Shown piece by piece: positions 41,827-58,674 of a DNA stretch of 64,000 bases. Each line of letters starts with the position of its first letter. Position 1 is the stretch's first letter. The notes below the pieces were generated by a model. It saw only the letters and a program-made list of their open reading frames with translations, did no database searches and was not told where the DNA came from. Where the stretch lies: positions 841,843-905,842 of the forward strand of contig CAWINF010000001.1 in the NCBI GenBank assembly GCA_963837495.1, read 5' to 3'. The translations under genes and the position numbers were made by a program. The stretch comes from an uncultured Acidobacteriota bacterium. Lineage in GTDB: Bacteria > Acidobacteriota > Thermoanaerobaculia > UBA5066 > Gp7-AA6.

Positions 41827-41830
<4 letters not shown>

Positions 41831-42435
41831 GGCGAGAAGAGGTTGATGAACTTCACTTCATCGCGCCGATCGAAAACGTTGCTTCGATCCTCACGATGGG
41901 CATTCTTTCGAACGAGCGGGCTCGAAGCATCTCGCATCTCTCGATAGCCATGGAGGAGGTTCAAGTGCGGCGCGACATGAAGACGGTCCCCGGGGGTCGA
42001 CCACTTCACGAGTACGCCAATCTGTACTTCACCGCTCGTAACCCGATGATGTTCAAGAAGCAGGCGATCCACGCGGAGACTTGCGTTCTACGTGTCGACC
42101 CATGCGTCCTCGATCTGTCAGGCGTCGTCGTAACCGACAGGAACGCATCACGCGGATGGGCTCGCTTTCGCCCCCCCGCAGAAGGACTCGGAGCCCTGAA
42201 ACACGAAGAGATCTTCGCGGATGATTGGCGCCATCCCGGAGATCCGGTTGCCTACGACCGCCATAAGGGCCTTAAGTGCGCCGAAGTTCTTGTGCCAGAC
42301 CGGGTTGAGCCAAGTCTGATTCGCGGAGCGTACGTTTCCTCCGACGAGGCATTTCGACGTCTGTCCGATGCTTGTCCGGCGCTCGACGTTCGGAAGTACC
42401 CTCACCTTTTCTTCTTAGAAGGTGGCCTCGAATGA
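41827..42435 (+). CDS. darT: DarT-like ssDNA ADP-ribosyltransferase toxin (DUF4433); ATGA overlap with the helicase stop
   Basis: ELHFIAPIENVASILTMGILSN...VPGGRPLHEYANLYFTARNPMMFK matches the DarT N-terminal consensus. Confidence 0.65.
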
Positions 42436-43562
42436 CCGTTCAGACTCTTGTGGGTAATCTTTTCGACTCCTCTGCGCAGACGCTTGTCAACACCGTAAAC
42501 ACGGTTGGGGTGATGGGCAAAGGAATCGCCCTTGAGTTCAGGAAGCGGTTCCCGGAGATGCACCAGGATTATGTGGCACGCTGCGCCGCCGGTAAAATCC
42601 ACCTCGGCGAGCCATACCTCTTCAAGGCGCTGCTGCCTCCGTGGATCCTCAACTTCCCGACGAAGGAGCACTGGCGGTCAGTCTCGCGGGTGGCCGACAT
42701 CGTGCGCGGATTGGAGTACCTCGAAAGGAATTACAAGGCCTGGGGAATCACATCACTGGCCGTTCCGCCTCTCGGCTGCGGTCTCGGGCAGCTCGAATGG
42801 CGGGTCGTTGGGCCTACACTCTTTCGTCACCTAAGCCGTCTCGATATTCCGGTTGAACTCTTCGCGCCGCATGGCACACCAGCCGAACAGCTCGACCCGC
42901 TGTTTTTGGGCATCGTCCCTCAGGCGCAAGCAGCCACTACGAACGGTCCCGAACAGGCTCGTATAGATGCAGCGTCCGTAGCTCTCGCGGAGATTCTCGC
43001 CCGGATTGCGAGGGAGCCCTACCATCGCCCGGTGGGTCGAACGATTTTTCAGAAGATTGCTTTCTTCGCGACGGAAGAGGGGATCCCAACGCGGCTTGAC
43101 TTTGCGCCCGAGAGTTATGGGCCGTTCTCCACAAGCGTTAAGCCCCTGCTCACGAGGCTCGTCAACAATGGTCTGCTCGTGGAGACCAAGCTCGGGCGGA
43201 TGTTCCGCCTGGATCCAGGTCCCACTTTCACAGATGCCTGCAAGACATTCGCGGACGCGATTTCGCAGTGGGAACCTGCAATCGAACGGATCGCGGACCT
43301 CTTTTTGAGAATGACTACTGAGCAGGCTGAAATCGCAGCGACCGTCTTTTACGCGGCCCGCCATCTGGTCGGCAATGGCGAGACGCCTCCGACGGAGCGC
43401 GACGTTCTTTCCGCGGTAAAGCAATGGAAGCGCAGGCGGAGTCCCCAGCTACGTGACGAGGATTTGGCTCTGGCAATCCGGAACCTTAACGTTCTTGGCT
43501 GGTTAAACACGCGGGCCAGCACGGATCTCCCGCTTCCTGAGGCCGCTTCTATTGGAGCATAA
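42432..43562 (+). CDS. darG: DarG-like macrodomain antitoxin; ATGA overlap with darT
   Basis: N-terminal macrodomain VNTVNTVGVMGKGIALEFRKRFP; ~240-aa C-terminal domain. Confidence 0.65.
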   Translation: MTVQTLVGNLFDSSAQTLVNTVNTVGVMGKGIALEFRKRFPEMHQDYVARCAAGKIHLGEPYLFKALLPPWILNFPTKEHWRSVSRVADIVRGLEYLERNYKAWGITSLAVPPLGCGLGQLEWRVVGPTLFRHLSRLDIPVELFAPHGTPAEQLDPLFLGIVPQAQAATTNGPEQARIDAASVALAEILARIAREPYHRPVGRTIFQKIAFFATEEGIPTRLDFAPESYGPFSTSVKPLLTRLVNNGLLVETKLGRMFRLDPGPTFTDACKTFADAISQWEPAIERIADLFLRMTTEQAEIAATVFYAARHLVGNGETPPTERDVLSAVKQWKRRRSPQLRDEDLALAIRNLNVLGWLNTRASTDLPLPEAASIGA

Positions 43563-43616: not shown

Positions 43617-44414
43617 GTGGTGAAAAAGGCGGTGCCGCCAGACCCCCGTCCAGCGCAGCTCTCGGTCGGCGAGATTCGCACCGCCATACCGAAGCTCGAG
43701 CGCCGCCTTGCAGAGGTGGAAGCCCTTGAACCCGATGGTATCCAAGGACGACCTGACCCGGCCTTTAGGGCAGTTGAAGACAAGATCGACAGTACGTTGG
43801 TCGAGGTTTTCGGACCTGACACGCTCGACTATAGGCGATTCACCGTCGGGCCTCTGTACAAGGGAGCCCTCTACAGGGGCGGCATGCCCATTGCGGAGGT
43901 CCGCGAGGGGTATCGGCGAGGGAAGGATCAGGCGGCTGGGAAACTCAAAACAGCAATCGAGATTCTGAGAGAAAAGCTCTTGGCTGTCCTGGGCACAGCT
44001 AACTCCGGAGCCGCGACGCCCCCGTCGCTCGATGCGCTCGATCTCGATCCGCAACTGAGAAATCGCGTTGCCCCGCTCTTTAGGGATGGTCATTATGCCA
44101 ACGCGATCGAGGACGCTTGCAAGGTTCTCGACCTCCTCGTCAAGTTGCGCAGCGGGCGAGAAGATCTGTCCGGGACGGAGTTAATGCAGGCAGTCTTCTC
44201 CGAGAGAAACCCGGTGCTTAGGTTCAACGACGGTGTGATGGAGACCGACAGAAGTGAGCAAAAGGGCATGATGTTCCTGTACTCGGGTACGATGTTGGCC
44301 CTGCGCAACCCCCGAGCCCACGGCTTTCAACCGGACGACGCCGCGACAGCCATCCAAGTTATCTCCATCATTAATTTCCTTATCGGTGCTCTGGGTAGGA
44401 CGACGAAAGCCTAG
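43617..44414 (+). CDS. HEPN-domain protein (TIGR02391-like); GTG start
   Basis: C-terminal FRDGHYANAIEDACKVLDLLV...MMFLYSGTMLALRNPRAHG (Rx4H motif). Confidence 0.5.
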   Translation: MVKKAVPPDPRPAQLSVGEIRTAIPKLERRLAEVEALEPDGIQGRPDPAFRAVEDKIDSTLVEVFGPDTLDYRRFTVGPLYKGALYRGGMPIAEVREGYRRGKDQAAGKLKTAIEILREKLLAVLGTANSGAATPPSLDALDLDPQLRNRVAPLFRDGHYANAIEDACKVLDLLVKLRSGREDLSGTELMQAVFSERNPVLRFNDGVMETDRSEQKGMMFLYSGTMLALRNPRAHGFQPDDAATAIQVISIINFLIGALGRTTKA

Positions 44415-44419: not shown

Positions 44420-47296
44420 ATGGCATCGAAGAAGCTCATCGAGGTCGCCCTGCCCCTGCCCGAGATCAACGATGCCTCGGCTTACGACAAGAGACCTGGA
44501 ATCGGGCCTCACCCTAAGGGAATCCACCACTGGTGGGCGCGCCTCCCGCTGCCAACGGCGCGGGCGGTGCTCTTTGCGTCGGTGGTGGACGACCCGAGCG
44601 GCCATCCGGAGAAGTGGCTGACGGAAGAAGCGCAGGACGCCGAGCGCGAGCGGCTTTTCGAAATCATACGCCGCATGATGGGTAAGAAGCTGCATACGCA
44701 TCCGGAGGTGTACGCCGAAGCGCGTGCCGAGATGCTCGATGACACCGGTGGAAAGCTTCCCGTCGCGTTCGACCCGTTCGCTGGTGGCGGCTCGATCCCG
44801 CTCGAGGCCAATCGTCTCGGCTTCGAGCCCCATGCCGGCGATCTCAACCCCGTAGCGGTGCTCCTCAACAAGTGCAGTCTCGAGATCGCCCCTCACTGGG
44901 CCAGCCGAGCACCAGTCAATCCGGAGGACCGCGCGCAGATCGGCGGAACAGAATCATGGCCCGGAACGCGTGGGCTTGCGGCCGACGTTCGTTACTACGG
45001 TAGGCTCATCCAAGACCGGGCGCGGCAGAAGATCGGGCACCTCTACCCGAAAGTCCGATTGCCGAGGGCGGAAGGGGGCGGGGAAGCAAACGTGATCGCC
45101 TGGATTTGGGCGCGCACCGTGGCGAGCCCCGATCCGTCGGCGCGTGGTGCCCACGTACCGCTAGTCAGTACTTTCTGGCTCTCAGCTAAGAAGGGAATGG
45201 AGGCGCGGCTCGAACCGATCGTGGACAGGGACGCGCGCATCTGGCGGTTCGCTGTGCGCCTGGGGATTCCCACCGAATGCACCGGGAAGCGCCCAGGGCA
45301 GAAGTGGAAGGATCACGCCAAAGAGTGCATCGCGTGCGCGGCGGTGGTATTTGGAACGAAGACAGGAAGAGCGCAGTTTCGCTGCCTCCTGACAGGCGCG
45401 CCGATCTCCGACGATCACATCAAGGCCGAGGGAGTTGCAGGCCGGCTCGGCAGTGTCTTGCTTGCGATCGTGGCGGAGGGCAAACGGGGACGCGTGTATC
45501 TCGATAGCTCCGATGCGCAAGTCGAGGCAGCAAGTGTCACGGCTCCCGTCGGGCAGGTGGAAGAACCGCTGGCCGAAGATCCCCGGAACATCTGGTGCGT
45601 CGGATATGGTCTCGATCGCTTCCGCCGGCTCTTTACCCCTCGCCAACTCACAGCAATGGTGACACTGAGTGACCTGGTGAAGGCGATCGCGGCGGACGTG
45701 AGGCGCGACGCGAAGGCGACGCTCGCCTCCGACGAGGTCCAGGCTTACGGCCTCGCGGTTACGACGTTTCTGGCGCTGGCGGTAGACCGGTGCGCAGACT
45801 TCAATAACACCTTATGTCGGTGGGATCAAAGCGCCGCCGGTCAGAGAGTAAAGAACCTATTCGGGCGGCAGGCGATCCCCATGTTGTGGGATTTCGCCGA
45901 GGCCAATACCCTCGGAGAGAAGTCTGTCTGCTGGGCGAACGCAGTAGATGTCACCGCCGACGCGATCGGCGCGCTCGCGTCTTCTGAGCGAATGCGAGGA
46001 ACCGCCCGCCAGATCGACGCTGCCACAGGGGCCAATGGGCTCAAGAACCTTCTCGTTAGCACCGATCCTCCCTACTACGACAACATCAGCTACGCTGGGC
46101 TCTCGGACTTCTTCTACGTCTGGCTCCGGCGCACGATCGGTGACCTTTACCCGGATCTCTTCAGCACAGTGCTTGTGCCGAAGGTGCCGGAACTCACGGC
46201 CGCGCCCGAACGCTTCGGCGGCGACAAGCAAAAGGCCAAGGAGCACTTCGAATCTGGCTTTCGCAAGGCCTTCACCGCGCTGCGCGAGAAGATGGATCCG
46301 CGATTTCCTCTTACCGTTTACTACGCCTTCAAGCAGGCCGACGAGGAAGGCGGAGGCGACGACGAGGATGCCGAGGGCGTTCCGCGCGTGGACCTTACCA
46401 CTGGCTGGGAGACGCTCCTCGAGGCGCTCATCGCGAGCGGCTTCCAGATCACGGCTACGTGGCCCGTGCGTGCGTCGCAGGCCTGGCGCATGCGCGCGAT
46501 GGACTCCAACGCCCTGGCCTCGTACATCGTGCTCGCCTGTCGCCCACGCAACGATGACGTCCCGCAGCCCGACCGCCGCTCGTTCGTTGCCGAACTCAAG
46601 CGGGAGTTGCCCATTGCGCTACGCCATCTTCAACAGGGCAACATCTCGCCGGTCGACTTTGCTCAGGCTGCCATTGGGCCGGGGATGGCAATCTACTCGC
46701 GATACAGTCAAATACTCGAGAGCAGTGGCAAAGCGATGAAAGTTCGTGGGGCGCTCTCGCTCATCAACCAAACTCTCACGGAGGTGCTGTCGGAACAGGA
46801 TGACGACTTCGACGCCGACACTCGGTGGGCGCTGGCGTGGTTCGATCAATCGGGATTCGACGCCGGAGAGTACGGCGCTGCAGAGACGCTCTCCAAGGCC
46901 AAGAATACAAGCGTCCAGGGCATGAAGGACGCCGGCATTCTCGACAAGAAGTCTCCGGGCGGAAAAGTTCGTCTGCTCAAACCGAGCGAACTGCGCGAGG
47001 ACTGGGACCCAGGCACCGACCCGCGCCTCACGGCATGGGAAGTCGTTCACCACCTGATCCGTGCTCTGGAGGAGGGCGGCGAGGCTGCGGCGGCAAAACT
47101 GGTCGCCAAACTCGGGAGCAAGGCCGAAGTTGCCCGCGAACTTGCCTACCGGCTCTACGCGATCTGCGAGCGGAAGAAACGCGCCGCCGAAGCGCTTTCC
47201 TACAATGCACTCGTCCAGAGCTGGCCCGAGATCACTCGTCTCGCTCGCGAGAGCCGCAAATCGAAGCCAGAGCAAGCCGCAATGTTCGGAGAGTAA
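44420..47296 (+). CDS. DUF1156-family N6-adenine DNA methyltransferase with inserted Zn ribbon
   Basis: N-terminal KLIEVALPLPEINDASAYDKRPGIGPHPKGIHHWWARLPL; FDPFAGGGS (motif I), LVSTDPPYYDNISY (motif IV, DPPY), CIACAA...C Zn ribbon. Confidence 0.7.
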   Translation: MASKKLIEVALPLPEINDASAYDKRPGIGPHPKGIHHWWARLPLPTARAVLFASVVDDPSGHPEKWLTEEAQDAERERLFEIIRRMMGKKLHTHPEVYAEARAEMLDDTGGKLPVAFDPFAGGGSIPLEANRLGFEPHAGDLNPVAVLLNKCSLEIAPHWASRAPVNPEDRAQIGGTESWPGTRGLAADVRYYGRLIQDRARQKIGHLYPKVRLPRAEGGGEANVIAWIWARTVASPDPSARGAHVPLVSTFWLSAKKGMEARLEPIVDRDARIWRFAVRLGIPTECTGKRPGQKWKDHAKECIACAAVVFGTKTGRAQFRCLLTGAPISDDHIKAEGVAGRLGSVLLAIVAEGKRGRVYLDSSDAQVEAASVTAPVGQVEEPLAEDPRNIWCVGYGLDRFRRLFTPRQLTAMVTLSDLVKAIAADVRRDAKATLASDEVQAYGLAVTTFLALAVDRCADFNNTLCRWDQSAAGQRVKNLFGRQAIPMLWDFAEANTLGEKSVCWANAVDVTADAIGALASSERMRGTARQIDAATGANGLKNLLVSTDPPYYDNISYAGLSDFFYVWLRRTIGDLYPDLFSTVLVPKVPELTAAPERFGGDKQKAKEHFESGFRKAFTALREKMDPRFPLTVYYAFKQADEEGGGDDEDAEGVPRVDLTTGWETLLEALIASGFQITATWPVRASQAWRMRAMDSNALASYIVLACRPRNDDVPQPDRRSFVAELKRELPIALRHLQQGNISPVDFAQAAIGPGMAIYSRYSQILESSGKAMKVRGALSLINQTLTEVLSEQDDDFDADTRWALAWFDQSGFDAGEYGAAETLSKAKNTSVQGMKDAGILDKKSPGGKVRLLKPSELREDWDPGTDPRLTAWEVVHHLIRALEEGGEAAAAKLVAKLGSKAEVARELAYRLYAICERKKRAAEALSYNALVQSWPEITRLARESRKSKPEQAAMFGE

Positions 47297-47299
47297 CTC

Positions 47300-50200
47300 A
47301 TGGCGATCACGAATCAGGAGCGCGTCGGTAAAGCGATGGAGCTACTCAAGGATGGGCTGGCTCCCTTCGTTGAGCGCGAGCTGAAGGCGCATCACGCTCA
47401 GAGCTGGTTTGAGGAAGCAAAGGCAGCAGTGAGCGAGATGCAAACAAGCTTCCTTGGAAGCGCCTCGGCGCCGAAGTGGGACGTTGGCTCGCTCCTGGTG
47501 GTCATGTGGAATCAGTGGAACCTCGTCTTCCGAAAGACCCTGGGCCAGGCCGAGCGAACTCTCGTGAGCGAGCTTCGCGACGCGCGCAAACGGTGGGCCC
47601 ACCAGGACGCCATCTCTGGCGACGACGCTTACCGGACTCTTGACTCAGCCAGCCGGCTGCTGACGGCCGTCTCCGCGCCGCAGTCGGACGAACTCGAGAA
47701 GATGAAGATGGAGCTCCTGCGCGTCCGATTCGACGAGCAGGTGCGAAGCGAAAAGCGGAAGAGCGCCGGGGCGGCCATCGAGAGTGCAGCGGCTGGGACC
47801 TTGAAGCCCTGGCGGGAGGTCGTCACGCCTCACAAGGACGTGGCTAGCGGCCGCTATCAGCAGGCGGAGTTCGCAGCCGACCTCTGGCAAGTACACCTCG
47901 GTGAGGGGACCGACGAATACCGGGATCCAGTCGAATTCTTCCGGCGGACGTACCTCACTGAAAGCCTCAAGGGGCTGCTCGTCGGGGCGGTGCAGCGAAT
48001 GGCCGGGCACGGCGGCGACCCCGTGGTGCAGCTCCAAACGAACTTTGGCGGCGGCAAGACCCACTCGATGCTCGCGCTCTACCACCTGTTTTCCAAGGCA
48101 ACTCTCAGCCAGTTGCCTGGCGCGGGTGCGATTCTGAATGAGGCCGGGGTCTCGAAGCTTCCCTCGGTTAATCGCGTCGTGCTCGTGGGTAATAAGATCT
48201 CGCCGGGAAACCCGGTCACGAAGCCCGACGGGACCGTCGTTCGGACGCTGTGGGGTGAGCTTGCGTGGCAGCTTGGCTTCGCGGCCGGCGGGGCCAAGGA
48301 AGCGAAGAAGGCTTTCCAGCGCGTCGCGCCGGACGACGAGAGGGCTACCAGCCCCGGTGACGCGCTGCGGGAGCTGATGAACGAGTACGGGCCGTGCCTG
48401 ATTCTGATCGACGAGTGGGTGGCCTACGCGCGGCAGCTCCACGATCAGAGCGACCTGCCGGCCGGAAGTTTCGAAACCCACTTCAGCTTTGCCCAGGTGC
48501 TTACGGAATCCGCGAAGGCGGCGAAGAAGTGCCTGCTGGTGATCAGCTTGCCCGCCTCGGACACCACGGGCTCTCCCCACGCGGTGGCCGACGACGTCGA
48601 GGTGGGCGGTGAACGAGGGCGCGCGGCGCTTGATCGCCTGCGCAATGCCGTAGGCCGTATCGAGGCGTCTTGGCGGCCGGCCAGCGCGGAGGAGAGTTTC
48701 GAGATTGTTCGGCGGCGACTTTTCGAGCCACTCGTTGAGAAGGCACAATTTGTGGCACGGGACACAGTGGCCCGGGCCTTCTACGACCTCTACCGGACGC
48801 AACATCAGGAATTCCCGCCCGAGTGCCGCGATTCGGACTACGAGAATCGGCTCAAGGCTGCCTATCCCATACATCCCGAGGTCTTCGACCGGCTCTACAA
48901 CGATTGGTCCACGCTGGTGAAGTTCCAGCGCACGCGCGGCGTGCTGCGGCTGATGGCGGCCGTGATCCACAGCCTGTGGCAGAAGGGCGACAGGAACCCG
49001 CTGATTCTTCCCGCCAACATCTCCATCGACGATCCGCGCGTCCAGTTCGAGCTCACGCGCTACCTCTCGGACAACTGGGTGCCCGTGATTGAGAAGGACG
49101 TGGACGGCCCTAATGTGCTGCCACTCCGGCTGGATGGCGAGGTGCCCAACCTCGGCAAGTACGCCGCCTGCCGCCGCGTGGCGCGGACGATCTACCTCGG
49201 GTCGGCACCCACCGCCACCGCCGCCCATCGGGGCATCGAGGACCGACGAATCAAACTTGGCTGCGTGATGCCAGGCGAGTCGCCCGCCGTCTTCGGCGAT
49301 GCTCTGCGGCGGCTCGCCGGCGCGGCCACGTACCTCTATCAGGATGGCCCGCGCTACTGGTACTCGACACAGCCGACGGTTACTAAGCTCGCGGAGGATC
49401 GCGCCGAGCAACTCAAACGCGATCCGGACAAGGTCGTGAAGGAGCTGGAGTCGCGCATCAGCGAGGACGTCACCGAGGACAGGCGAGAGAAGACAAGCAG
49501 AAAAGGCGCCTTCAGCCGCGTCCACCCGCTGCCGCACAGCGGCCAGGATGTGCCCGACGACATGGATGCCCGCCTCGTGATCCTCGACATCGACCATCCC
49601 TACGGCAAGGAGCCGGGCAATCCCGCTGAAGCCCAGGCAAATGCGATTCTCGAGTCCCGTGGCAACACGCCGCGCCTGTTCCGCAACACGTTGGTCTTCC
49701 TGGCTGTTGACCAGGCACGCCTGCAGGACCTCGACGAGGCGGCACGTCGTTACCTCGCCTGGGAATCCATCTTGGCCGAGAAGGTGACGCTGGATCTCTC
49801 GCCGCATCAAGTGAAACAGGCCGAGACCCAGAGGACGTCAGCCGACGGCGCCGTGACCGCTCGACTCCCCGAAGCGTACCAGTGGCTCCTGATTCCCACG
49901 CAGAGCACCCCGCAATCGCCGGTAAAGTGGCAGGCAGTCCGCCTCACAGGCCAGGACGCGCTAGCGGCAAGGGCCAGCAAGAAGCTCCGAGGCGACGATT
50001 CCCTCGTAACCGGGCTAGGCGCGACCGTTCTACGAAAATACCTCGACGAGGTTCCCCTCTGGCGTGGCGATCACGTCGACATCAGACAGCTCGGCGAAGA
50101 CTTCGCGCGCTATCTCTACCTTCCCCGAATCAAGGACACCTCCGTGCTGATCGGCGCGATCCGTAGTGGGCTCAACCTGATCACCTGGGAGAAGGACTCC

Positions 50201-50677
50201 TTCGGCTACGCCGACAGCTTCGACGAGGCGACCGGCCGATACCGAGGCCTCCAAGTCGGCCGAAACGTCTCCATCTCGGACGAGGACTCTCACGGTCTAC
50301 TCGTCAAGCCCGAAGTTGCCGCTCGACAGCTAGCCCAGGAAACCGCCGCCTCTTCCTACCCCGCAGGCGCCGCCCCCACAGCTCTTCAAGCCAACGGTCC
50401 CGCAGCGACGGCGGCACCCCTCACCGCTCCCGCACCTCGCCTCCTCACGCGCTTCCACGGCTCCGTCCACCTTGACGCCTCCCGCCTAGGCCGAGACGCG
50501 GGCAGAATCGCTGAAGAAATCGTCCAACACCTAGCGGCCTTGGTAGGCTCCGACGTCGAAGTGACGTTGGAAATCCACGCCGCCGTCCCCACCGGCACCC
50601 CCGACCAGGTAGTCCGCACCGTATCCGAAAACTGCCGCACCTTGAGATTCACAGACTTTGGGTTTGAGGAAGATTAG
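47300..50677 (+). CDS. DUF499-family large P-loop ATPase
   Basis: NFGGGKTHSMLALYHLF Walker A; LILIDEWVAY Walker B; 1125 aa. Confidence 0.6.
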   Translation: MAITNQERVGKAMELLKDGLAPFVERELKAHHAQSWFEEAKAAVSEMQTSFLGSASAPKWDVGSLLVVMWNQWNLVFRKTLGQAERTLVSELRDARKRWAHQDAISGDDAYRTLDSASRLLTAVSAPQSDELEKMKMELLRVRFDEQVRSEKRKSAGAAIESAAAGTLKPWREVVTPHKDVASGRYQQAEFAADLWQVHLGEGTDEYRDPVEFFRRTYLTESLKGLLVGAVQRMAGHGGDPVVQLQTNFGGGKTHSMLALYHLFSKATLSQLPGAGAILNEAGVSKLPSVNRVVLVGNKISPGNPVTKPDGTVVRTLWGELAWQLGFAAGGAKEAKKAFQRVAPDDERATSPGDALRELMNEYGPCLILIDEWVAYARQLHDQSDLPAGSFETHFSFAQVLTESAKAAKKCLLVISLPASDTTGSPHAVADDVEVGGERGRAALDRLRNAVGRIEASWRPASAEESFEIVRRRLFEPLVEKAQFVARDTVARAFYDLYRTQHQEFPPECRDSDYENRLKAAYPIHPEVFDRLYNDWSTLVKFQRTRGVLRLMAAVIHSLWQKGDRNPLILPANISIDDPRVQFELTRYLSDNWVPVIEKDVDGPNVLPLRLDGEVPNLGKYAACRRVARTIYLGSAPTATAAHRGIEDRRIKLGCVMPGESPAVFGDALRRLAGAATYLYQDGPRYWYSTQPTVTKLAEDRAEQLKRDPDKVVKELESRISEDVTEDRREKTSRKGAFSRVHPLPHSGQDVPDDMDARLVILDIDHPYGKEPGNPAEAQANAILESRGNTPRLFRNTLVFLAVDQARLQDLDEAARRYLAWESILAEKVTLDLSPHQVKQAETQRTSADGAVTARLPEAYQWLLIPTQSTPQSPVKWQAVRLTGQDALAARASKKLRGDDSLVTGLGATVLRKYLDEVPLWRGDHVDIRQLGEDFARYLYLPRIKDTSVLIGAIRSGLNLITWEKDSFGYADSFDEATGRYRGLQVGRNVSISDEDSHGLLVKPEVAARQLAQETAASSYPAGAAPTALQANGPAATAAPLTAPAPRLLTRFHGSVHLDASRLGRDAGRIAEEIVQHLAALVGSDVEVTLEIHAAVPTGTPDQVVRTVSENCRTLRFTDFGFEED

Positions 50678-50733: not shown

Positions 50734-52866
50734 ATGAGAATCTCAACCATCCTCGAAAAGATCGACGAGAAGCAGCTGTTCGTTCCCGCGTTTCAGCGCG
50801 AATACGTCTGGAAGCGCGAGGATGCGAAGTCGCTCATCGATTCGCTCATAAAGGAGTACCCGACGGGCACCATGCTGACCTGGGAGACGGCACACCCGCC
50901 AGAACTCAAGGGTCCGCACAAATACAACGAGAGACAGGGCGCCGTGCGCCTGCTCTTGGACGGCCAGCAGCGTGTCACAACTCTGTACATGCTCATGCGC
51001 GGGGAAATACCTGCGTATTACACGCTCGCGGAGATCATGACCGACACCCGCGGCCTGTATGTCAACCTGGCGACCCTCGAGCTTTCTTATTATATTAAGA
51101 CGAGAATGGAGACCGACCCCTACTGGCAGAATATCACCGACGTATTTCAGGGAAAAGTCAGCGCCTTTGACCTCCAGGCCTCCTTTGCCACGCTCAACAT
51201 AATGCTTAGCATGGAAGAGTTGAAGCAGCTCAACGAGAAGATTAACGTCGTCACACGGATTAAGGACAGAGAGTTCCCCGAACAGACGATACCCGTCAAG
51301 GCACACATCAGGCAAGCTATCGACATTTTCTACAAGGTCAATGCAAGCGGCGTCTCCCTTACCGACGCCGAACTTGCGTTAGCACAGATCTCAGGGTTCT
51401 GGCCCCAAGCTCGCGATCTCTTCAAGGCTAAGCTCGCCAAGCTCGCGAATGAGGGATTCGGCTTTCAGCTGGATTTCCTCGTCTATGTCTTGTTGGGTTG
51501 TCTGCACCACATGGGCTCCGACATGCGAAAGCTACACGATGAGGAGAAGAAGACAGATTTGCAAGCAGCATGGGAGCGGCTGGATACACAGGTTCTGGAC
51601 TACGTAGTGAATCTGTTGAGAGCGACCGCTTACGTCGACCACATTTCTGAGATCAACTCACCCTATGCGCTCGTGCCCATCATCGTATATTGCTTTGACA
51701 GAATCGGAAAGAACCTCTCCGATCTAGAGATTCGTAAGATGGTTAAGTGGTTCTATTACACTCAGATCCGAACCAGATATGTCAGCCAGTTGCCGCAAAA
51801 GCTCGACCGGGACCTCCGAACGCTGGTGGAATCGCAACAGCCGTTTGATGACCTGCTGCAGGTGATTGCTGAGGAACGACCCCTCCAAGTGTCGCCCTCG
51901 GAGTTTGTGGGCCGGGCGACGGGGCACCCGCTTTTCGGAATGATGCGCTGGTACCTCAAGAGCCGTGGCGCGGTCTGCCTGACCACCGGCCTCAGCCTAC
52001 GGAAGAATATGGGCAAGAAGTACCAGCTTGAACTGGACCATATCTTTCCCTTCTCCCGGCTCAAGAAGGCAGGTTACGGCAAGGGCAACCGTGTGAAGTA
52101 CGCGCTGGCACAGGAATTCACCAACCGGGCTCTTCTCACTCAGGTCGCCAACCGCTCGAAGGCGGCGATGGACGCCGCGGTGTACCTGGCCGGCGTGAAG
52201 AAGCAGTTTCCTAAGGCCCTCGAGTTGCAGTGCATTCCCGAGAACCCGGAGTTGTGGAAGATTGAGCGCTATGAGGGCTTTCTCGAGGCTCGACGCGAGA
52301 TTCTGGCATCGCATTTCAATGAGTTCCTCAACACGCTGACCGACACCGAAGAAACCGGCGCCCCAGCGACCCTCGAGGACCTGATCTCCGAGGGCGAGAG
52401 CAACGAACTGGAGTTCAAGGCGACCTTGCGCTGGGATCTCGAGAAAGGCGAAGTCAGTCACAAGATGGAGGGTGCCATCGTCAAGGCAGTCGCAGCGTTT
52501 GCCAATTCCCATGGTGGCACGCTACTGATTGGTGTGGACAACGATGGCCAGGCGGTTGGCCTGGAGCACGATTATACTTCGCTCGGTGACGCTGATAAGG
52601 ACAAGTTCGAGCGATGTCTTTACAGCCTCCTCTACCAGAGTGTCGGTAAAAGCTTCGTAACCACGAAGGTTACAGCCAGATTTCATGATGTTGCCGGAGC
52701 GGAGGTCTGCCAAGTGGATGTCGCGAAGGCCAAGGAGCCGATCGTCGTGGCGTCGAAAGACAAGAACGGCGTGGCCGTGGAGAAGTTCTACGTGCGTAGC
52801 GGAAACGCATCCCAAGAGATTCCGCTGAGCCAGATGAATGCATACCTAAAGGAACGGTTCAGCTGA
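50734..52866 (+). CDS. GmrSD-like type IV restriction enzyme: DUF262 (ParB-like) + DUF1524 (His-Me finger) + C-terminal AlbA_2/Schlafen-like domain
   Basis: LFVPAFQREYVWKRED...LLDGQQRVTTL; ...QLELDHIFPFS...NRALLTQVANRSK; C-terminal ESNELEFKATLRWD...AFANSHGGTLLIGVDNDGQ. Confidence 0.65.
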   Translation: MRISTILEKIDEKQLFVPAFQREYVWKREDAKSLIDSLIKEYPTGTMLTWETAHPPELKGPHKYNERQGAVRLLLDGQQRVTTLYMLMRGEIPAYYTLAEIMTDTRGLYVNLATLELSYYIKTRMETDPYWQNITDVFQGKVSAFDLQASFATLNIMLSMEELKQLNEKINVVTRIKDREFPEQTIPVKAHIRQAIDIFYKVNASGVSLTDAELALAQISGFWPQARDLFKAKLAKLANEGFGFQLDFLVYVLLGCLHHMGSDMRKLHDEEKKTDLQAAWERLDTQVLDYVVNLLRATAYVDHISEINSPYALVPIIVYCFDRIGKNLSDLEIRKMVKWFYYTQIRTRYVSQLPQKLDRDLRTLVESQQPFDDLLQVIAEERPLQVSPSEFVGRATGHPLFGMMRWYLKSRGAVCLTTGLSLRKNMGKKYQLELDHIFPFSRLKKAGYGKGNRVKYALAQEFTNRALLTQVANRSKAAMDAAVYLAGVKKQFPKALELQCIPENPELWKIERYEGFLEARREILASHFNEFLNTLTDTEETGAPATLEDLISEGESNELEFKATLRWDLEKGEVSHKMEGAIVKAVAAFANSHGGTLLIGVDNDGQAVGLEHDYTSLGDADKDKFERCLYSLLYQSVGKSFVTTKVTARFHDVAGAEVCQVDVAKAKEPIVVASKDKNGVAVEKFYVRSGNASQEIPLSQMNAYLKERFS

Positions 52867-52873: not shown

Positions 52874-53542
52874 ATGCGACGCCTCTTCACGTACTGCATA
52901 CCGTGGGACGAGGGAGGCGCTCCGAACCCTTTTTGGGGAATCTGCACGCTCGCGATCTGCAAGCCAGCCATTCGACGTACGGCACGCGTCGGCGACTGGG
53001 TTGCTGGAACCGGCTCCAAATACTCTCGAGGTAGCGACCTAAGTGGCCGCCTAGTCTACGCCATGGAAGTCTCCTCCATCATGACCCTTGCAGAGTACGA
53101 TGCCTGGACGCGGGACCATGCACCGAAGAAGATTCCTGATCTCAAGAAGAGGGATCTGCGAAGGCGCGTCGGCGACTCGATCTACGATTTCTCGGCTGGC
53201 CAGCCGCAGCAACGGCCAGGAGTCCATGGGAAAGGAAACATCAGGACAGATCTCAGCGGCGAATACGTACTGCTCTCCTTGAATTTCTACTATTTCGGCG
53301 ATCAAGCCGTCGTTGTGCCGGACTACCTCAGCCCCATCGTTCACCAGGCCCAGGGGCACAAGGTCAACGCGAACGGACCGTACGTGGAGCGGTTCCTCAA
53401 GTGGCTGAAAGCCCAGGGTTACCCTCGCAACTGCCTCTTTGGCAAACCTACACTGCTCGAAAGGGTCGCAACTGGCCTTGCTCAGCCTGCTCGAGCCCGG
53501 CGTCGCTGTGCTGAAGCCGACGAAGGGGCCCCAGAGTCATGA
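52874..53542 (+). CDS. Nmad2-like (nucleotide-modification-associated domain 2) protein; assignment from memory of the family N-terminal signature
   Basis: MRRLFTYCIPWDEGGAPNPFWGICTLAICKPAIRRTARVGDWVAGTGS. Confidence 0.4.
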   Translation: MRRLFTYCIPWDEGGAPNPFWGICTLAICKPAIRRTARVGDWVAGTGSKYSRGSDLSGRLVYAMEVSSIMTLAEYDAWTRDHAPKKIPDLKKRDLRRRVGDSIYDFSAGQPQQRPGVHGKGNIRTDLSGEYVLLSLNFYYFGDQAVVVPDYLSPIVHQAQGHKVNANGPYVERFLKWLKAQGYPRNCLFGKPTLLERVATGLAQPARARRRCAEADEGAPES

Positions 53543-54735
53543 ATCCTGTGGACCGTGGCGCACCCGGTGCTGCGATGGGTTCCATTGCCAGGGCCTCGCT
53601 CGTTCAAGAGGTCTACCGTTGTACCCACTGCGTTCCGCTGGTCTTACCCTTCGCCACTTGCACGGATGCAGGCCGCTTCTTCCGGTTTCCGCCGGTGATC
53701 GGAGCTCCAGGCGCCGCAGAAGTCCTTTTTGTGGGAATTAACCCCCGTGTTTCTCCCTCCAATCTTCCTTTGCACACCGCGCTGATGCGGGACATTTCCG
53801 CTTTCCAGGAACTCGCAGCTAATAGCTATCGCGAGAGGGACTACATCGGACCGCAAGGGCAGGAGAGTCACTATTCCCTTCATCTCTGGATTGCGAGTCA
53901 ACTGTTCCCCGGTCGTCGTTTCGCTTCCGTTGCCGCGGTAACCGAGTTGTTCTTCTGCGCGTCAGAATCTTCCGCAAGACTCCCGGTCGAGCAGAGCCCT
54001 TGCGCGGACAAGTATCTTGGCAGAGTACTAGCTTCGACGCGCCCTAAGCTGGTCGTTGCCGTCGGCAGCAGGGTTGCGAACTACTTGGCTGGGAGGTTTC
54101 CGAGGCAGGCACAGTACGCAATCGCGGCCTGGGGAGACCACGGTCGAGCGCCAATCATTCCGGTGCCGCATCCTAACTCTAGGGGCGAGAAGCACTCAAG
54201 AACGTTGAGGGCAGTAGAAGTTGCCCGGGAATATCTAATTTCGGGGAATGTGCCAGCCCTGCCCGCGGTATCGGCAACTACAGCGCGAGAACCGAGACGG
54301 TTATCGGCGTCGTTGAGAGGTCACGCTGGGCCCCGCGATGCCGGGCGGCGCGACGGGAGAGTGGATGCAACGCCAGCCGCACCACGCGCTAGCCGTTCTG
54401 AGCTCGCTCGGCTCGTGCAAGACCCCGAGCCCGGGAGCATACAGAGGGATTGGACCGGCAACGACAAGAGCGCCAGGAACCACAACGGCATTGTAGACCT
54501 GAGAGAGAGTCCGCTGAGGTTGCGCCTTTCCTGGAAGAGGAACCCAGATGACCAAGCCAAATTCATCGGGGTCTTTGATCTAGACCTTCCACGCCTTCTT
54601 GCTGCCAACTACATTAGAGTTGAGGGAAATCGGCCAAGTGCCGTTCGTCTTCGATTCTGGCATGGCTACGACGATGTCATCTACATCCAGGTCAATAGCC
54701 AGACCAGAGGTTTGCCGCTAGGGCGAATCGTGTAG
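53539..54735 (+). CDS. Uracil-DNA-glycosylase-superfamily-like N-terminal domain (~220 aa) fused to an unknown ~170-aa C-terminal domain; ATGA overlap with the Nmad2-like gene
   Basis: VLFVGINPRVSP (motif A position), ELFFCASESS, KLVVAVGSRVANYL, IIPVPHPNSRGE (motif B position). Confidence 0.4.
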   Translation: MNPVDRGAPGAAMGSIARASLVQEVYRCTHCVPLVLPFATCTDAGRFFRFPPVIGAPGAAEVLFVGINPRVSPSNLPLHTALMRDISAFQELAANSYRERDYIGPQGQESHYSLHLWIASQLFPGRRFASVAAVTELFFCASESSARLPVEQSPCADKYLGRVLASTRPKLVVAVGSRVANYLAGRFPRQAQYAIAAWGDHGRAPIIPVPHPNSRGEKHSRTLRAVEVAREYLISGNVPALPAVSATTAREPRRLSASLRGHAGPRDAGRRDGRVDATPAAPRASRSELARLVQDPEPGSIQRDWTGNDKSARNHNGIVDLRESPLRLRLSWKRNPDDQAKFIGVFDLDLPRLLAANYIRVEGNRPSAVRLRFWHGYDDVIYIQVNSQTRGLPLGRIV

Positions 54736-54761
54736 CGACGGCTACGGCGGGCCGTAGTGAG

Positions 54762-54850
54762 AAGGGGTCAGCCGTGCGCCTCGTGTATTTTCTGATTCCG
54801 GGCGACAGGCGATCCTGTCATCGTTTCCGGCGCCGGCGGGCGGGGAGAGG
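54762..54850. repeat. Partial copy (3-prime-of-relE end) of the ~360-bp relE repeat
   Basis: GGGGTCAGCCGTGCGCCTCGTGTATTTTCTGATTCCGGGCGACAGG... Confidence 0.6.
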
Positions 54851-54934
54851 TCGGCTAGGGGGGTCAGTCTTGTACGATGGTACTTTGCGTGGGGTTTCCG
54901 GGTCGACCGTCATTTCAATCGGCCTGGGAGAAGA

Positions 54935-55295
54935 AGGGTCAGCCGTGCGCTTCGTGTATTTCCTGATTCCGGGCGACAGGGTCATCGTTTCCGGCGCCGG
55001 CGGGCGGGCAGAGGTGTCTTCTGCTTCCTGGAAGAAGGGGCCAGGCCCGAGGCGGACGACCTTTCGCGCGAGCTCGTAGAGGCCATCATGCGCACCTTCG
55101 CGCCGGAGGCCGGCAGCCACGACGTAAACCATCCGGGCGGCAGGATCAACCGAAGAGATCAGGCGGTATCGCCGGCCAACCACCCGAAGGCTTCCAAAGC
55201 CCATGAGGTCTTCCCGGAGCGGCTTTCTCTGCCTTTCAGGATCACCCTGCAGACGTTTGGACCGATAAGGGGTCAGCCGTCCGCTTCGTGCACTG
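54935..55295. repeat. Full copy of the ~360-bp repeat carrying 5-prime-truncated relE on the minus strand, bounded by AAGGGGTCAGCCGT(G/C)CGCTTCGTG direct repeats
   Basis: Encodes ...RLQGDPERQRKPLREDLMGFGSLRVVGRRYRLISSVDPAARMVYVVAAGLRREGAHD... Confidence 0.6.
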
Positions 55296-55305
55296 TCGCC
55301 AATTG

Positions 55306-55599
55306 CTAAGAGCGGCGACGCGGCTTGGAGCGTTTTCGCCGCCCGCGTGGTTTCTTGATGCCGTAGAGCTCTCGAACCTCAGCAATCGTAGCTGACCGAT
55401 TCTTGCGGCGGCGGTCCTCGATCATTTCCCAGAAGCGGGGATTGCCCATCGTCAGGAGGTCTTCCAAATCCTCCCCCTCGACCCCGATAACCAGGGCGGC
55501 GGGCTTTCCGTGCTTTGTAATGAGCACGCGATCCTGCTGAGCCTTGGCGATGTACTCCGAGAGAGACGCTTTCGCATCGCGAACCGCTACGACTTTCAT
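55306..55599 (-). CDS. Phd/YefM-family antitoxin
   Basis: MKVVAVRDAKASLSEYIAKAQQDRVLITKHGKPAALVIGVEGEDLEDLL. Confidence 0.7.
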   Translation of the reverse strand: MKVVAVRDAKASLSEYIAKAQQDRVLITKHGKPAALVIGVEGEDLEDLLTMGNPRFWEMIEDRRRKNRSATIAEVRELYGIKKPRGRRKRSKPRRRS

Positions 55600-55892
55600 A
55601 AAATCTCCTCCGTTCTCTTTCTTTCTTTCCGCCGGACGGAACGAACCGTCACGGTCCGTCCCGATTCATCCACGTCGTAGAAAACCCGCAGGTCACCCAC
55701 GCGAAGCTGCCAGACCGGCCGCACCTGTTCCCACGGAGGCGCCAGACCGCTGAGCATCTTCCTCCTTCTGCTTGCCTCAGCAGGTTCGTGAGCCAGCTGC
55801 TTTTCGATGGCGTCGAGAACACGTTTCCTCTCGGAGGCTCGAAGCTCCCCGATTTCCGCAACCGCATCCTGATCGAGCCGGATCGCGAACAT
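55596..55892 (-). CDS. ParE/RelE-family toxin (complete); stop overlaps Phd start (ATGA); TATAAT 13 nt upstream of ATG
   Basis: MFAIRLDQDAVAEIGEL...WQLRVGDLRVFYDVDESGRTVTVRSVRRKE. Confidence 0.6.
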   Translation of the reverse strand: MFAIRLDQDAVAEIGELRASERKRVLDAIEKQLAHEPAEASRRRKMLSGLAPPWEQVRPVWQLRVGDLRVFYDVDESGRTVTVRSVRRKERKRTEEIL

Positions 55893-56049
55893 CGTGACTA
55901 CAATTATAGTCTCTAGATCCAGCGCTGCCAACCCGTGCAAATAGAGAGATCCGAGGCGGGGGAAGAACTGGGGTCGGGCTTGAATATCGGGTGTTGAGCC
56001 GAAACAATTCCGACTCCACCTTAGCCGTTGGGTGGTGTTTCGGGTCGAT

Positions 56050-56441
56050 CGGGAAGAAGGGGTCAGCCGTGCGCTTCGTGTATTTCCTGATTCCGGGCGA
56101 CAGGCAATCCAGTCATCGTTTCCGGCGCCGGCGGGCGGGGAGAGGTGTCTTCTGCTTCTTGGAAGCAGGGGCCAGGCCGAGTTGGACGATCTTCGCGCGA
56201 GCTCGTAGACGTCATCGTGCGCACCTTCGCGCCGCAGGCCGGCAGCCACGACGTAAACCAACCGGGCGGCAGGATCAACCGAACAGATCAGGCGGTATCG
56301 CTGGCCAACCACCCGAAGGCTTCCAAAGCCCATGAGGTCTTCCCGGAGCGGCTTTCCCTGCTTCTCAGGATCACCCTGCAGACGTTTGGACGTGTCGAAG
56401 AGTTGCTGCCGTACTCGTCGGTCGGCAACGCCGGCGAGCAT
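56050..56441 (-). pseudogene. Repeat copy with near-full-length relE-like gene (MLAGVADRRVRQQLFDTSKRLQGDPEKQGKPLRED...) whose 3-prime end is frameshifted and fuses into the downstream ORF
   Basis: Compared with other copies, a 1-nt indel near ...YELARK. Confidence 0.5.
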
Positions 56442-56639
56442 CTTGGACGCGGTCGTCGTCCAGAGGACCTCGCAGGCGGGAGTGGGGGAAGAGCGGGGTC
56501 AATCGTCTATCGGTGTATTACGGATGCATTAGCCGGAGCTGGCGGTGCTGATTCGCCGGGCCATCGTGACCAGGTGCAGGGCGAAGGCAGTTCGAAGGGT
56601 CGATCCGCGCGACCTGGGCCCCGGGTCAGTTGTCGCTGA

Positions 56640-56771
56640 TGCGCGGAAGCCGCGATCGGATGGCGTTTCTGACTCTCTTCGCAATCCGGACCGCCTCATC
56701 GGCCTCCCGGCGTGTGATCGGTTCCCAGTCTCCCGGATAGCGAGCCTCGACCGCGTAGCGCTTCAGAAGTC
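56640..56771 (-). pseudogene. HEPN-toxin C-terminal fragment (...LLKRYAVEARYPGDWEPITRREADEAVRIAKRV)
   Basis: Motif only; 5-prime part replaced by the adjacent parE gene. Confidence 0.35.
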
Positions 56772-57077
56772 CTACCTCTTGAGGCGATCGGTCCAGTAGC
56801 GGGGCCGGCGACTTTGGTGGCCGACGGCCAGGATGCGGATCATGTCCGATGCGATCAGGTAATAGAGGTTGTAGGGAAACCGACGGAGCACCTTGCGTCG
56901 GACGCCCCTTCGATGGACTACCGGAGAGGCTTCCGGGTGATCCAGGATGAACCGGATGCTTCTACTGACTTCCTCCAGGAAGCTCCGAGCAATCGGAGAA
57001 GGCGCCTCGTCTCGGTAGTAACGTCCGGCTTCAAGAAGGTCGGCCCTGGCGTCGGGATGAAACTGCCAGCTACGCAA
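56772..57077 (-). CDS. ParE-family toxin
   Basis: ...VLRRFPYNLYYLIASDMIRILAVGHQSRRP. Confidence 0.7.
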   Translation of the reverse strand: MRSWQFHPDARADLLEAGRYYRDEAPSPIARSFLEEVSRSIRFILDHPEASPVVHRRGVRRKVLRRFPYNLYYLIASDMIRILAVGHQSRRPRYWTDRLKR

Positions 57078-57306
57078 GCAGGTCGCGGAACTCCTTCATG
57101 ACTTTGTCGCCAGGAATTCCCTTAACCTTGCCCTGTTCCCACTCTTCCAATCGCCGTTCTGTCTCCTCGAGCCACAGCGCCTCGAATTCTGCCGGCGACA
57201 GCTTCTCTTCCTCCTCATCCAGACTTCGGAGCAGCCGGCCGGCGAGCCTGGCGCGCTCTTTGTGGCCGAGCTTCAAAGCAGCGGCAACGATCTCTTCGGT
57301 GGTCAC
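57070..57306 (-). CDS. Addiction-module antitoxin, TIGR02574-like; GTG start
   Basis: VTTEEIVAAALKLGHKERARLAGRLLRSL...EFEALWLEETERRLEEWEQGKVKGIPGDKV. Confidence 0.6.
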   Translation of the reverse strand: MTTEEIVAAALKLGHKERARLAGRLLRSLDEEEEKLSPAEFEALWLEETERRLEEWEQGKVKGIPGDKVMKEFRDLLA

Positions 57307-57329
57307 GAGCCAATGATACCTCGAGCTCC

Positions 57330-57530
57330 ACAAGCAGGTCCGGGGCCAGGCCGAGGCGGACGACCTTTCGCGCCAGCTCGTAGAGGTCATCGTGCGCACC
57401 TTCGTGCCGCAGGCCGGCAGCCACGACGTAAACCAACCGGGCGGGAGGATCAACCGAACAGATCAGGCGGTATCGCTGGCCAACCACCCGAAGGCTTCCA
57501 AAGCCCATGAGGTCTTCCCGGGATGAAATG
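57330..57530. repeat. Partial copy of the relE repeat
   Basis: Aligns to the central 200 bp of the 54935-55295 copy. Confidence 0.55.
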
Positions 57531-57679
57531 GGATCGGTCCTGAATTCATGCATTATTACGGTGGGCAGCCGTCAGAACTCGGAAAGGTTCTCATGACTCT
57601 ACTTCTTCGAGCTGAAAGGGTATCGAGCGTGTACACAATTGTTGACACACATGAGATACCGTGGCAGAATCGCTTCGAG

Positions 57680-57946
57680 ATGAAGACGACGACGATCCGG
57701 GAGTTCCGAAAGGATGTCAGCGAGTTGCTGCGCGGCAGGGATGCTGTCCTGGTGACCCGGCATGGCAAGCCCGCCGGTGTCCTCTACCCCCTCACCGATC
57801 CGCGCAAACTGCCGATGAAGGTTCGCCGCAAGCTTTACCTGGAGCTCTCCGAAGGAATCGCCAGGCAGCTCAAGACCAAAGGGATAGCCGAAGAGCAGCT
57901 CCAGCATGACTTCGAGGATTTTAAGAAGCGTCGCCGCCGACAGTAA
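57680..57946 (+). CDS. Phd/YefM-like antitoxin
   Basis: MKTTTIREFRKDVSELLRGRDAVLVTRHGKPAGVLYPL. Confidence 0.6.
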   Translation: MKTTTIREFRKDVSELLRGRDAVLVTRHGKPAGVLYPLTDPRKLPMKVRRKLYLELSEGIARQLKTKGIAEEQLQHDFEDFKKRRRRQ

Positions 57947-58328: not shown

Positions 58329-58418
58329 TGGTCAGAGGCGCCTTCCGTAGAGCGAGATGTCGTCGTGTTTGACAACGTCGACTGCGCCGGGATGAAGGTC
58401 AACGACGCGGTGCGGCAT
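58329..58418 (-). pseudogene. Truncated parE (MPHRVVDLHPGAVDVVKHDDISLYGRRL*), cut where the vapBC-like module begins
   Basis: First 10 codons identical to the intact parE at 61194. Confidence 0.45.
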
Positions 58419-58668: not shown

Positions 58669-58674
58669 TTCTCG

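Follow-up and report, generated by a model that had tools for sequence, protein, structure and literature searches.

In the 64,000-nucleotide (nt) stretch of Acidobacteriota DNA analysed here, hereafter the window, the list of open reading frames (ORFs) contains a single co-directional, densely packed gene array on the plus strand between positions 38330 and 50677. It holds hmaA, hmaB and hmaC, the core genes of the defence system Hma, and between hmaA and hmaB it holds a darT-darG pair and a gene for a stand-alone HEPN protein (Table 1). From its sequence we predict that the array is an intact Hma operon with two defence modules lodged between hmaA and hmaB, one of them DarT-DarG and the other a HEPN of the Ymh type. 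The locus almost certainly belongs to Hma, also described as Type-1 BREX-related (BR), in the variant with a HEPN-DUF499 fusion and a helicase-nuclease. This assignment is made because the three proteins match the corresponding PADLOC profiles at full length: HmaA with 1753.6 bits (E=0; amino acids (aa) 1-1163 on profile positions 1-1170 of 1176), HmaB with 1031 bits (E=0) and HmaC with 1133.8 bits (E=0; aa 167-1124), against next-best scores of 409 bits for DrmD, 98 bits for MTase_II (aa 396-715 of HmaB) and 138 bits for the generic DUF499 profile, respectively.

Table 1. Features of the Hma operon and its surroundings, with positions in the window.
Feature	Position (nt)	Strand	Description and basis
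tmRNA gene	14768-15128	+	Tag peptide ANNSNLALAA; ~23 kb upstream of the defence island
354-aa gene between addA and island	35400-36464	+	Family search: no match
240-aa gene between addA and island	36464-37186	+	Weak AP_endonuc_2/CbiR-like TIM-barrel match
HNH_2 endonuclease gene, divergent from hmaA	37175-38143	-	NF045808 53.6 bits against a cut-off of 180
hmaA	38330-41830	+	1166 aa; SNF2 helicase-nuclease
Embedded darT	41827-42435	+	202 aa; single-stranded DNA (ssDNA) thymidine ADP-ribosyltransferase toxin
Embedded darG	42432-43562	+	Macrodomain antitoxin; PADLOC, Pfam Macro
Embedded stand-alone HEPN gene	43617-44414	+	265 aa; Hypoth_Ymh/TIGR02391 family
hmaB	44420-47296	+	958 aa; DUF1156 methyltransferase
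Cys-rich 19-aa insertion in HmaB	45275-45337	+	~aa 286-306; alignment with relatives
hmaC	47300-50677	+	1125 aa; N-terminal Swt1-like HEPN and DUF499 ORC/Cdc6-like AAA+ ATPase
BrxU/HEC-05-like GmrSD type IV restriction gene	50734-52866	+	ORF list; GmrSD_N; PADLOC HEC-05 148 bits, aa 2-534
Nmad2 gene	52874-53542	+	ORF list; PF18753, 183 bits; ATGA overlap with next ORF
Uracil-DNA glycosylase (UDG)-like gene	53539-54735	+	ORF list; 398 aa; weak PF03167 match, 23 bits, below cut-off
Direct-repeat array	54754-61694		5-7 repeats of 130-300 nt, up to 97% identical, spacing 1.1-2.6 kb

The genes of the array are closely spaced: hmaA and darT, like darT and darG, overlap by 4 nt, and 54 nt separate darG from the HEPN gene, 5 nt the HEPN gene from hmaB and 3 nt hmaB from hmaC. 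If the 56 nt between hmaC and the first of the co-directional ORFs 3' of it are included, every gap in the array is at most 56 nt. The junction sequences show that the ATG of darT overlaps the hmaA stop codon as ATGA and that an ATG at 42432 overlaps the darT stop codon in the same way; the latter is likely the start of darG, the mechanically called ORF beginning at a TTG at 42372. A promoter/terminator scan found no plus-strand terminator-like site inside the operon; the operon boundaries were drawn from gene spacing alone, because the counts in that scan were no higher than the shuffled expectation. A search for flanking direct repeats bordering the operon found none, the repeats detected belonging to a separate downstream array. 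The translations of hmaA, hmaB and hmaC lack internal stops and are full length against their profiles, and the ORFs of hmaB and hmaC, together with the motifs quoted for them in a preliminary description of this DNA, are present exactly as reported there.

HmaA carries the Pfam domains SNF2-rel_dom, Helicase_C and NOV_C (formerly DUF3883), in keeping with the SNF2 helicase ending in a PD-(D/E)XK-like DUF3883 that the preliminary description had placed upstream of the other two genes. A Walker A motif (DDPGAGKT, aa 129-136) and a DEAH box (aa 230-233) are accompanied by the C-terminal NOV_C/DUF3883 PD-(D/E)xK nuclease domain (aa 1046-1135) with D1076, E1091, K1093 and E1108; GKT, DEAH and D1076...E1091-x-K1093 are invariant in an alignment of near-full-length relatives (52/52). 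Other PADLOC profiles score lower on this protein, including DrmA (234 bits) and BrxHI/BrxHII (294-336 bits), and the solved structure nearest to it in sequence is that of RapA, which recycles RNA polymerase. The four nuclease residues match D1084, E1104, K1106 and E1121 of Halomonas meridiana HmaA, which were mutated in that protein and are needed for its activity: the H. meridiana enzyme by itself defends E. coli from T4, and its isolated nuclease domain nicks supercoiled plasmid in vitro (Liu et al., 2024, PMC11232893).

In HmaB, the N-terminal DUF1156 signature HPKGIHHWWARLPL (aa 31-44) is followed by motif I, FDPFAGGGS (aa 117-125, with DPFAGGG at aa 118-124, nt 44771-44791), and by motif IV, STDPPYYDN (aa 547-555, with DPPY at aa 549-552, nt 46064-46075). 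The two motifs are separated by a variable region, in which column entropy peaks at aa 321-560. Both are without exception among the aligned relatives: D-P-F-x-G-G-G is kept in 78/78 and DPPY in 78/78, a result that bears on the preliminary description, which had named a DPPY not conserved in alignments as grounds for giving up its reading. Its assignment of this protein to DUF1156 and of the adjacent one to DUF499 likewise agrees with Pfam (77 and 88.7 bits).

HmaC combines the DUF499 ATPase with an additional HEPN domain in its first 165 aa, which Pfam identifies as HEPN_Swt1 (127 bits, aa 11-125, nt 47330-47674) with the residues R96-x4-H101. The preliminary description had missed this Swt1-like N-terminus. 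The Walker A motif GGGKTHS (aa 250-256, nt 48047-48067), the Walker B motif LILIDEW (aa 367-373, nt 48398-48418) and HEPN residues R96 and H101 are all invariant in the alignment of relatives (63/63), and column entropy is high at aa 1001-1040. The variable stretches of the two proteins lie where a target-recognition domain (HmaB, aa 321-560) and a sensor (HmaC, aa 1001-1040) would be expected. The BrxC model gave no match on HmaC, which fits the HmaC and DUF499 profiles; a single-sequence search of the PDB found no significant sequence relatives of HmaC, and the C-terminus of HmaC-type proteins has been described as similar to an RNA-recognition motif (RRM) (PMC12839542).

The genes embedded between hmaA and hmaB encode a complete DarTG: adjacent, ATGA-coupled DarT (Pfam 115.6 bits, PADLOC 111.6 bits) and DarG (PADLOC 293 bits, matching from residue 24 of the TTG ORF), with an AEVLV motif in DarT and a GKGIA motif in DarG that we take, by reading them against known DarT and DarG proteins, to be the catalytic glutamate motif and the macrodomain motif. 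The HEPN protein that follows matches Hypoth_Ymh (Pfam, 89.6 bits) and TIGR02391 (61 bits), retains an intact RNPRAH motif and gives weak PADLOC matches to Aga_HEPN and PD-Lambda-3_B. The presence of DarTG and a HEPN gene inside the trio, noticed in the preliminary description, is thus upheld by Pfam and PADLOC matches. GC content at third codon positions is 0.63-0.68 in the embedded genes (0.63 in darT) versus 0.75-0.81 in the hma genes and 0.77-0.79 in the host addAB genes, and this lower value suggests that the embedded genes were acquired later.

To place the locus among its relatives, we scanned one genome per species and obtained 80 loci with HmaB relatives at 47-71% identity, in which gene order was assessed by tblastn with the window proteins wherever the contig was long enough. 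These loci span Acidobacteriota, Proteobacteria, Planctomycetota, Verrucomicrobiota, Bacillota, Bacteroidota, Spirochaetia and others, the patchy, horizontally transferred spread expected for a defence system. The order hmaA-gap-hmaB-gap-HEPN-hmaC is kept across the 80 loci. The gap between hmaA and hmaB (the A-B junction) exceeds 1 kb in 53/65 loci, with a median of 1.9 kb and 2.6 kb in the window, and that between hmaB and hmaC (the B-C junction) does so in 19/73, with a median of 58 nt and 3 nt in the window. The cassettes at these junctions include AbiEi/AbiEii, short prokaryotic Argonautes with partner genes, a TmtA-like giant ATPase, a Schlafen-HATPase, a dynamin-like GTPase, an AbiL-like ABC ATPase, SIR2, a reverse transcriptase and HEC-08.

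Insertions of this kind are well documented: 931 of 1,485 Hma systems (62.7%) have genes embedded between the hma genes, and such 'guilt by embedding' has led to the systems HEC-01 to HEC-09 (Payne et al., 2024, 10.1101/2024.01.29.577857); a similar share, about two-thirds of hma loci, was given by Liu et al. (2024, PMC11232893). With three genes at the A-B junction and none at B-C, the window falls within the limit of at most about three genes between neighbouring hma genes used to define embedding (Payne et al., 2024). The interruption by defence genes that the preliminary description had pointed out is the rule in Hma rather than a peculiarity of this locus, and the junctions of our relatives agree with this. 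DarTG and Hypoth_ymh are not mentioned in the supplements of the embedding preprint, nor is DarT in the 2026 BREX paper; DarTG inside Hma therefore has no explicit report in the searchable texts and supplements, yet it is fully expected from the guilt-by-embedding picture.

The closest relatives illustrate how variable the junctions are. Around the most similar HmaB in a protein database (P0002, 77% identity) lie a HigB-like/HTH pair, a GmrSD_N protein, a RiboL-PSP HEPN and AbiEii. The most similar one among the species genomes (L001, an Acidobacteriota metagenome-assembled genome, JBBINC010000003.1, 8104-14641; 71% identity) lies in a decaying Hma locus, where the last ~57 aa of hmaA are left and hmaC is frameshifted; its A-B junction holds an intact but different DarT (212 bits) and DarG (434 bits), whose identity to the window pair is no more than 25-32%, which indicates independent insertions. 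Another relative (L069) has a Ymh-type HEPN gene immediately upstream of hmaB and no DarTG. We conclude that the window holds two modules, each acquired on its own, stacked at a junction already known as a hotspot of insertion. At the B-C junction of L001, an ORF resembles a DUF86-type HEPN by sequence (RNRIIHAY motif), with no match in the family search.

The family to which the locus belongs has been approached from several sides. A HEPN-DUF499 fusion with methylase and helicase neighbours was noted by Anantharaman et al. (2013), according to PMC12839542, and an operon running from a COG1743 methyltransferase through DUF499 to a SWI2/SNF2 helicase-nuclease was predicted to be an uncharacterised restriction system (Bell et al., 2020, PMC7641849). 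The computational prediction that the preliminary description mentioned can thus be traced, and its placement of the locus as a restriction-modification (R-M)/BREX-like system stands. Its label 'uncharacterised' is outdated: Hma was named in 2021, with 1,638 loci in 26 phyla (Payne et al., 2021, PMC8565338), HmaA was assayed against T4 in 2024 (PMC11232893), and the system was renamed Type-1 BREX-related in 2026, with 2,446 taxa, 1,370 of them with the HEPN-DUF499 fusion and 79% with the helicase-nuclease fusion (Rakesh and Krishnan, 2026, PMC12839542). The window shares with Hma/Type-1 BR the gene order, the helicase-PD-(D/E)xK fusion, the HEPN-DUF499 fusion and the embedded defence genes; it differs in its stack of DarTG and Ymh HEPN at the A-B junction, in a degenerate Zn finger and in a rare Cys-rich insertion.

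Comparison with neighbouring families relied on a Pfam/PADLOC scan of the window ORFs from 28.7 to 64 kb, to which the absences given here refer. Type-3 BREX, composed of BrxC, the methyltransferase PglXI/BrxXI, the helicase BrxHII and PglZ, has a homologous and similarly arranged ATPase, N6-methyltransferase and SNF2 helicase, and HmaB-type methyltransferases have been structurally compared with those of Type-3 BREX (PMC12839542). PglZ, BrxA, BrxB/BrxF and BrxL, however, are missing from the scanned ORFs, the helicase bears a nuclease and the methyltransferase has a DUF1156 N-terminus, so the window is BREX-related rather than BREX; identity with BREX was rejected as the required combination of PglZ, BrxC and PglX was not found. 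Class 1 DISARM (DrmA, DrmB, DrmC, DrmD, DrmMI) likewise sets a SNF2 helicase beside an adenine-type methyltransferase, but the window has no DUF1998 protein (DrmB), DrmA partner or phospholipase D (PLD) protein (DrmC), and the score of the HmaA profile is over fourfold that of DrmD; DISARM was rejected for want of these partners, the resemblance being limited to HmaA on the DrmD/DrmA helicase profiles. The Type-2 and Type-3 BR systems and the 'anti-phage-associated DUF1156' family NF042963 have in common with the window the core of DUF1156 methyltransferase, DUF499 ATPase and SNF2 helicase. Type-2 BR was rejected because DUF3780 and the HKD N-terminal nuclease are absent, and Type-3 BR because PglZ and iSTAND are; on NF042963, HmaB scores 97 bits against a cut-off of 1000. 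MADS was rejected as well, its sole match being a generic PknB-type kinase (19873-22422; MAD6, 153 bits against a cut-off of 460) 16 kb off. The RRDM island of enteropathogenic E. coli offers a parallel of another sort, in that a single operon there nests DarTG2 within a restriction-type system based on methylation (type I R-M, PMC12255303); there the host system is HsdRMS rather than Hma, whereas the window has no identified upstream RptR-like regulator and has a HEPN gene stacked beside DarTG.

The cysteine region of HmaB deserves separate comment. The preliminary description had noted a Cys-x2-Cys...Cys insertion and called the protein a Zn-ribbon methyltransferase; the cysteines are real (C303-x2-C306 and C322), but the pattern does not hold as a family signature. 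C303 and C306, along with C287, fall within a 19-aa insertion that is missing in 77/78 aligned locus-derived relatives and recurs in 2/58 close database homologues (P0046 and P0063), with the same C...CxxC spacing. The four-Cys Zn finger (CxxxxC...CxxC) of the COG1743 'Zn-ribbon' methylase, situated between motifs I and IV, was not found in HmaB: it is present in relatives such as L045 and L019 (CSNPAC...RCLFC) and degenerate in the window and most close relatives (ASPDPSA...RCLLTG), where C322, conserved in 77/78, is alone retained. The insertion might rebuild a metal site together with C322, and a Zn site rebuilt in a clade that lacks the canonical finger could possibly confer a new target specificity on HmaB.

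An AlphaFold model of HmaB from database homologues was of moderate quality (mean predicted local distance difference test (pLDDT) 75, predicted template modelling score (pTM) 0.58). A class-I S-adenosylmethionine (SAM) methyltransferase fold with DPPY in HmaB is supported. In favour of an adenine DNA methyltransferase are the invariance of motif I and DPPY, the MTase_II match and the published structural comparison with Type-3 BREX methyltransferases. The adenine specificity is read from the DPPY only, and a DNA-adenine substrate is unproven, because the resemblance is to generic SAM methyltransferases, including the tRNA N2-methylguanosine (m2G) enzymes, and the catalytic loops are of low confidence.

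For the family, Rakesh and Krishnan have proposed that the methyltransferase marks self DNA, the DUF499 protein senses, the helicase-nuclease restricts and the HEPN domain serves as a suicide back-up (PMC12839542). An R-M model of this Hma-like kind, at work in an intact operon that DarTG and the Ymh HEPN ride as autonomous passengers, is probably the best account of the window overall; on its core proposition, methylation-guarded restriction by Hma, we consider the case evenly balanced. Under this model HmaB would use its split, DPPY-bearing class-I SAM methyltransferase to mark host DNA at a short motif, read by its variable insert, which in the clade of the window includes the degenerate Zn finger. 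HmaC, with its ORC/Cdc6-like AAA+ ATPase and variable C-terminal nucleic-acid-binding domains, would sense invading DNA and scaffold the complex there; the SNF2 motor of HmaA would then translocate on DNA while its PD-(D/E)xK domain nicked or cleaved unmarked DNA, and the HEPN RNase fused to HmaC would be held as a last-resort abortive effector. DarTG would reversibly ADP-ribosylate thymidine in ssDNA, blocking phage replication, and most likely both it and the Ymh HEPN RNase would act independently of Hma, and their place in the operon would follow from the status of the hma intergenic junctions as hotspots of insertion.

Several observations weigh against methylation guarding, and they fall on both HmaB and HmaA. 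No Pfam methyltransferase domain was detected in HmaB even at E <= 10, DUF1156 being the sole match; a PDB search with the single sequence and with a 43-sequence profile gave no significant relatives, the best match (E = 0.047) covering the motif I segment; both catalytic loops are disordered in the model, with pLDDT < 50; a Foldseek search with HmaB returned no match; and a fold search with the model found generic class-I SAM methyltransferases only, including the tRNA m2G enzymes Trm14, Trm11 and TrmN, much as the fold matches of Liu et al. likewise include tRNA methyltransferases (PMC11232893). According to the literature no HmaB of any origin has been shown to methylate, and T4 grown in an HmaB-overexpressing host is still blocked by HmaA; HmaA alone is enough, protecting from T4 as well as a larger construct does, and is non-toxic in E. 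coli, which sits uneasily with a nuclease strictly guarded by methylation (PMC11232893). Together with the absence of hmaB from 14.7% and of hmaC from 19.3% of hmaA loci (PMC11232893), these results lend some weight to a different view, possible though distinctly less likely than the R-M model, in which HmaA is the entire defence, a stand-alone, abortive-infection-like helicase-nickase, and HmaB and HmaC are dispensable modulators of regulation, sensing breadth or anti-anti-defence. That view must explain why most loci, drawn from more than 20 phyla, retain hmaB and hmaC beside hmaA and keep all catalytic residues invariant, which points to selection on enzymatic activity. It also draws its evidence from a single homologue in a heterologous host and from one phage. 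T4 DNA has glucosyl-hydroxymethylcytosine, and T4 is for that reason a poor test of adenine-methyl protection. The resemblance of HmaB to tRNA m2G enzymes could also be taken, with the invariant R-x4-H of the HmaC HEPN domain, the RRM-like HmaC C-terminus (PMC12839542) and the kinship of HmaA with RapA, to mean that RNA is one target of the system or its main one, or that phages are excluded in a BREX-like, non-degradative way, HmaB being an RNA methylator or a reader, the HEPN RNase and RRM-like C-terminus of HmaC the main effector and sensor, and HmaA a remodeller of nucleoprotein complexes instead of a restriction enzyme for DNA. We consider this unlikely: the HmaA nuclease nicks plasmid DNA and is needed for defence (PMC11232893), about 44% of Type-1 BR systems do without the HEPN fusion (1370/2446 taxa have it; PMC12839542), so that HEPN cannot be the core effector, and DPPY, a large target-recognition insert and a C-terminal helix-turn-helix (HTH) are typical of DNA amino-methyltransferases (PMC12839542).

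A further question, compatible with any of these readings, is whether the embedded genes are wired into Hma. They might act as an abortive back-up, with toxin dosage tied to Hma expression or DarT released when Hma fails, as the preliminary description had suggested in outline; the ATGA overlaps that join hmaA, darT and darG, the short gaps throughout the array and the recurrence of DarTG in L001 and of a Ymh-type HEPN in L069 speak for such a link, and auxiliary or backup effectors around BREX and BR loci have been proposed in the literature (PMC12839542). We nevertheless judge it improbable, given that the A-B cassettes are hypervariable even among HmaB proteins 71-77% identical, whose cassettes are wholly different or hold a DarTG of low identity that entered independently, and that the embedded genes are foreign in composition; published work regards embedded cassettes as autonomous, embedded systems that have been assayed act alone, most copies of such systems being found outside Hma (10.1101/2024.01.29.577857), and DarTG is a self-contained defence system elsewhere (PMC12255303). 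Slightly more doubtful still is the stronger version, in which translational and functional coupling, through these overlaps and the 5-nt spacing of the HEPN gene from hmaB, would create an obligate three-layer system of DNA restriction by HmaA, ssDNA ADP-ribosylation by DarT and RNA cleavage by two HEPN domains, with the failure or inhibition of Hma freeing the toxins. It is very improbable that this copy of Hma is decaying or no longer active: the closest relative, L001, is visibly degraded, but the window proteins are full length against their profiles, keep their catalytic residues and contain no internal stops.

The locus therefore introduces no new kind of system; it is a clean, fully intact example of the very widespread Hma/Type-1 BR family, already named, catalogued and partly assayed. 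With four potential effectors in a 12-kb operon (the PD-(D/E)xK nuclease, DarT and two HEPN domains), it offers a compact natural test case for cooperation between nested defence modules and their host system, and it bears on the central questions about Hma, namely DNA methylation by HmaB, what the DUF499 ATPase senses and why HmaA alone stops T4.

Beyond the operon, the surroundings are those of a larger defence and toxin-antitoxin island, of which Hma forms part. Upstream of the operon are housekeeping genes of the chromosome, namely a transfer-messenger RNA (tmRNA) gene, cysK, a PknB-like kinase gene and addB/addA (28756-35372). Genes for tmRNA are often integration sites of genomic islands; no link between this one and the island is apparent, because addAB and other housekeeping genes intervene. 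At the island edge, the HNH_2 gene may encode a type IV-like restriction enzyme; its product shows weak similarity to restriction endonucleases that bind phosphorothioated DNA. On the other side, the GmrSD-type gene begins 56 nt 3' of hmaC and may share a transcript with the Hma operon; its product carries an extra C-terminal Schlafen AlbA_2 domain (aa 555-696). The Nmad2/UDG-like pair that follows gave no PADLOC, NCBIfam or PDB sequence match and was absent by tblastn from the 80 related Hma loci, and a literature search for 'Nmad2' returned no match; the pair could represent a defence module of base modification or base excision that has yet to be characterised, and may be more novel than the Hma finding itself. 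The repeats further downstream overlap small ORFs on the minus strand that are paralogous to one another and have a RelE/ParE-like sequence (...YRLISSVDPAARLVYVVAAGLRHEG...) in their C-terminal part. Phd/YefM, ParE, PIN_2 and Unstab_antitox genes lie among the repeats, and the region has the appearance of toxin-antitoxin cassettes arranged in tandem, possibly in an integron-like manner.

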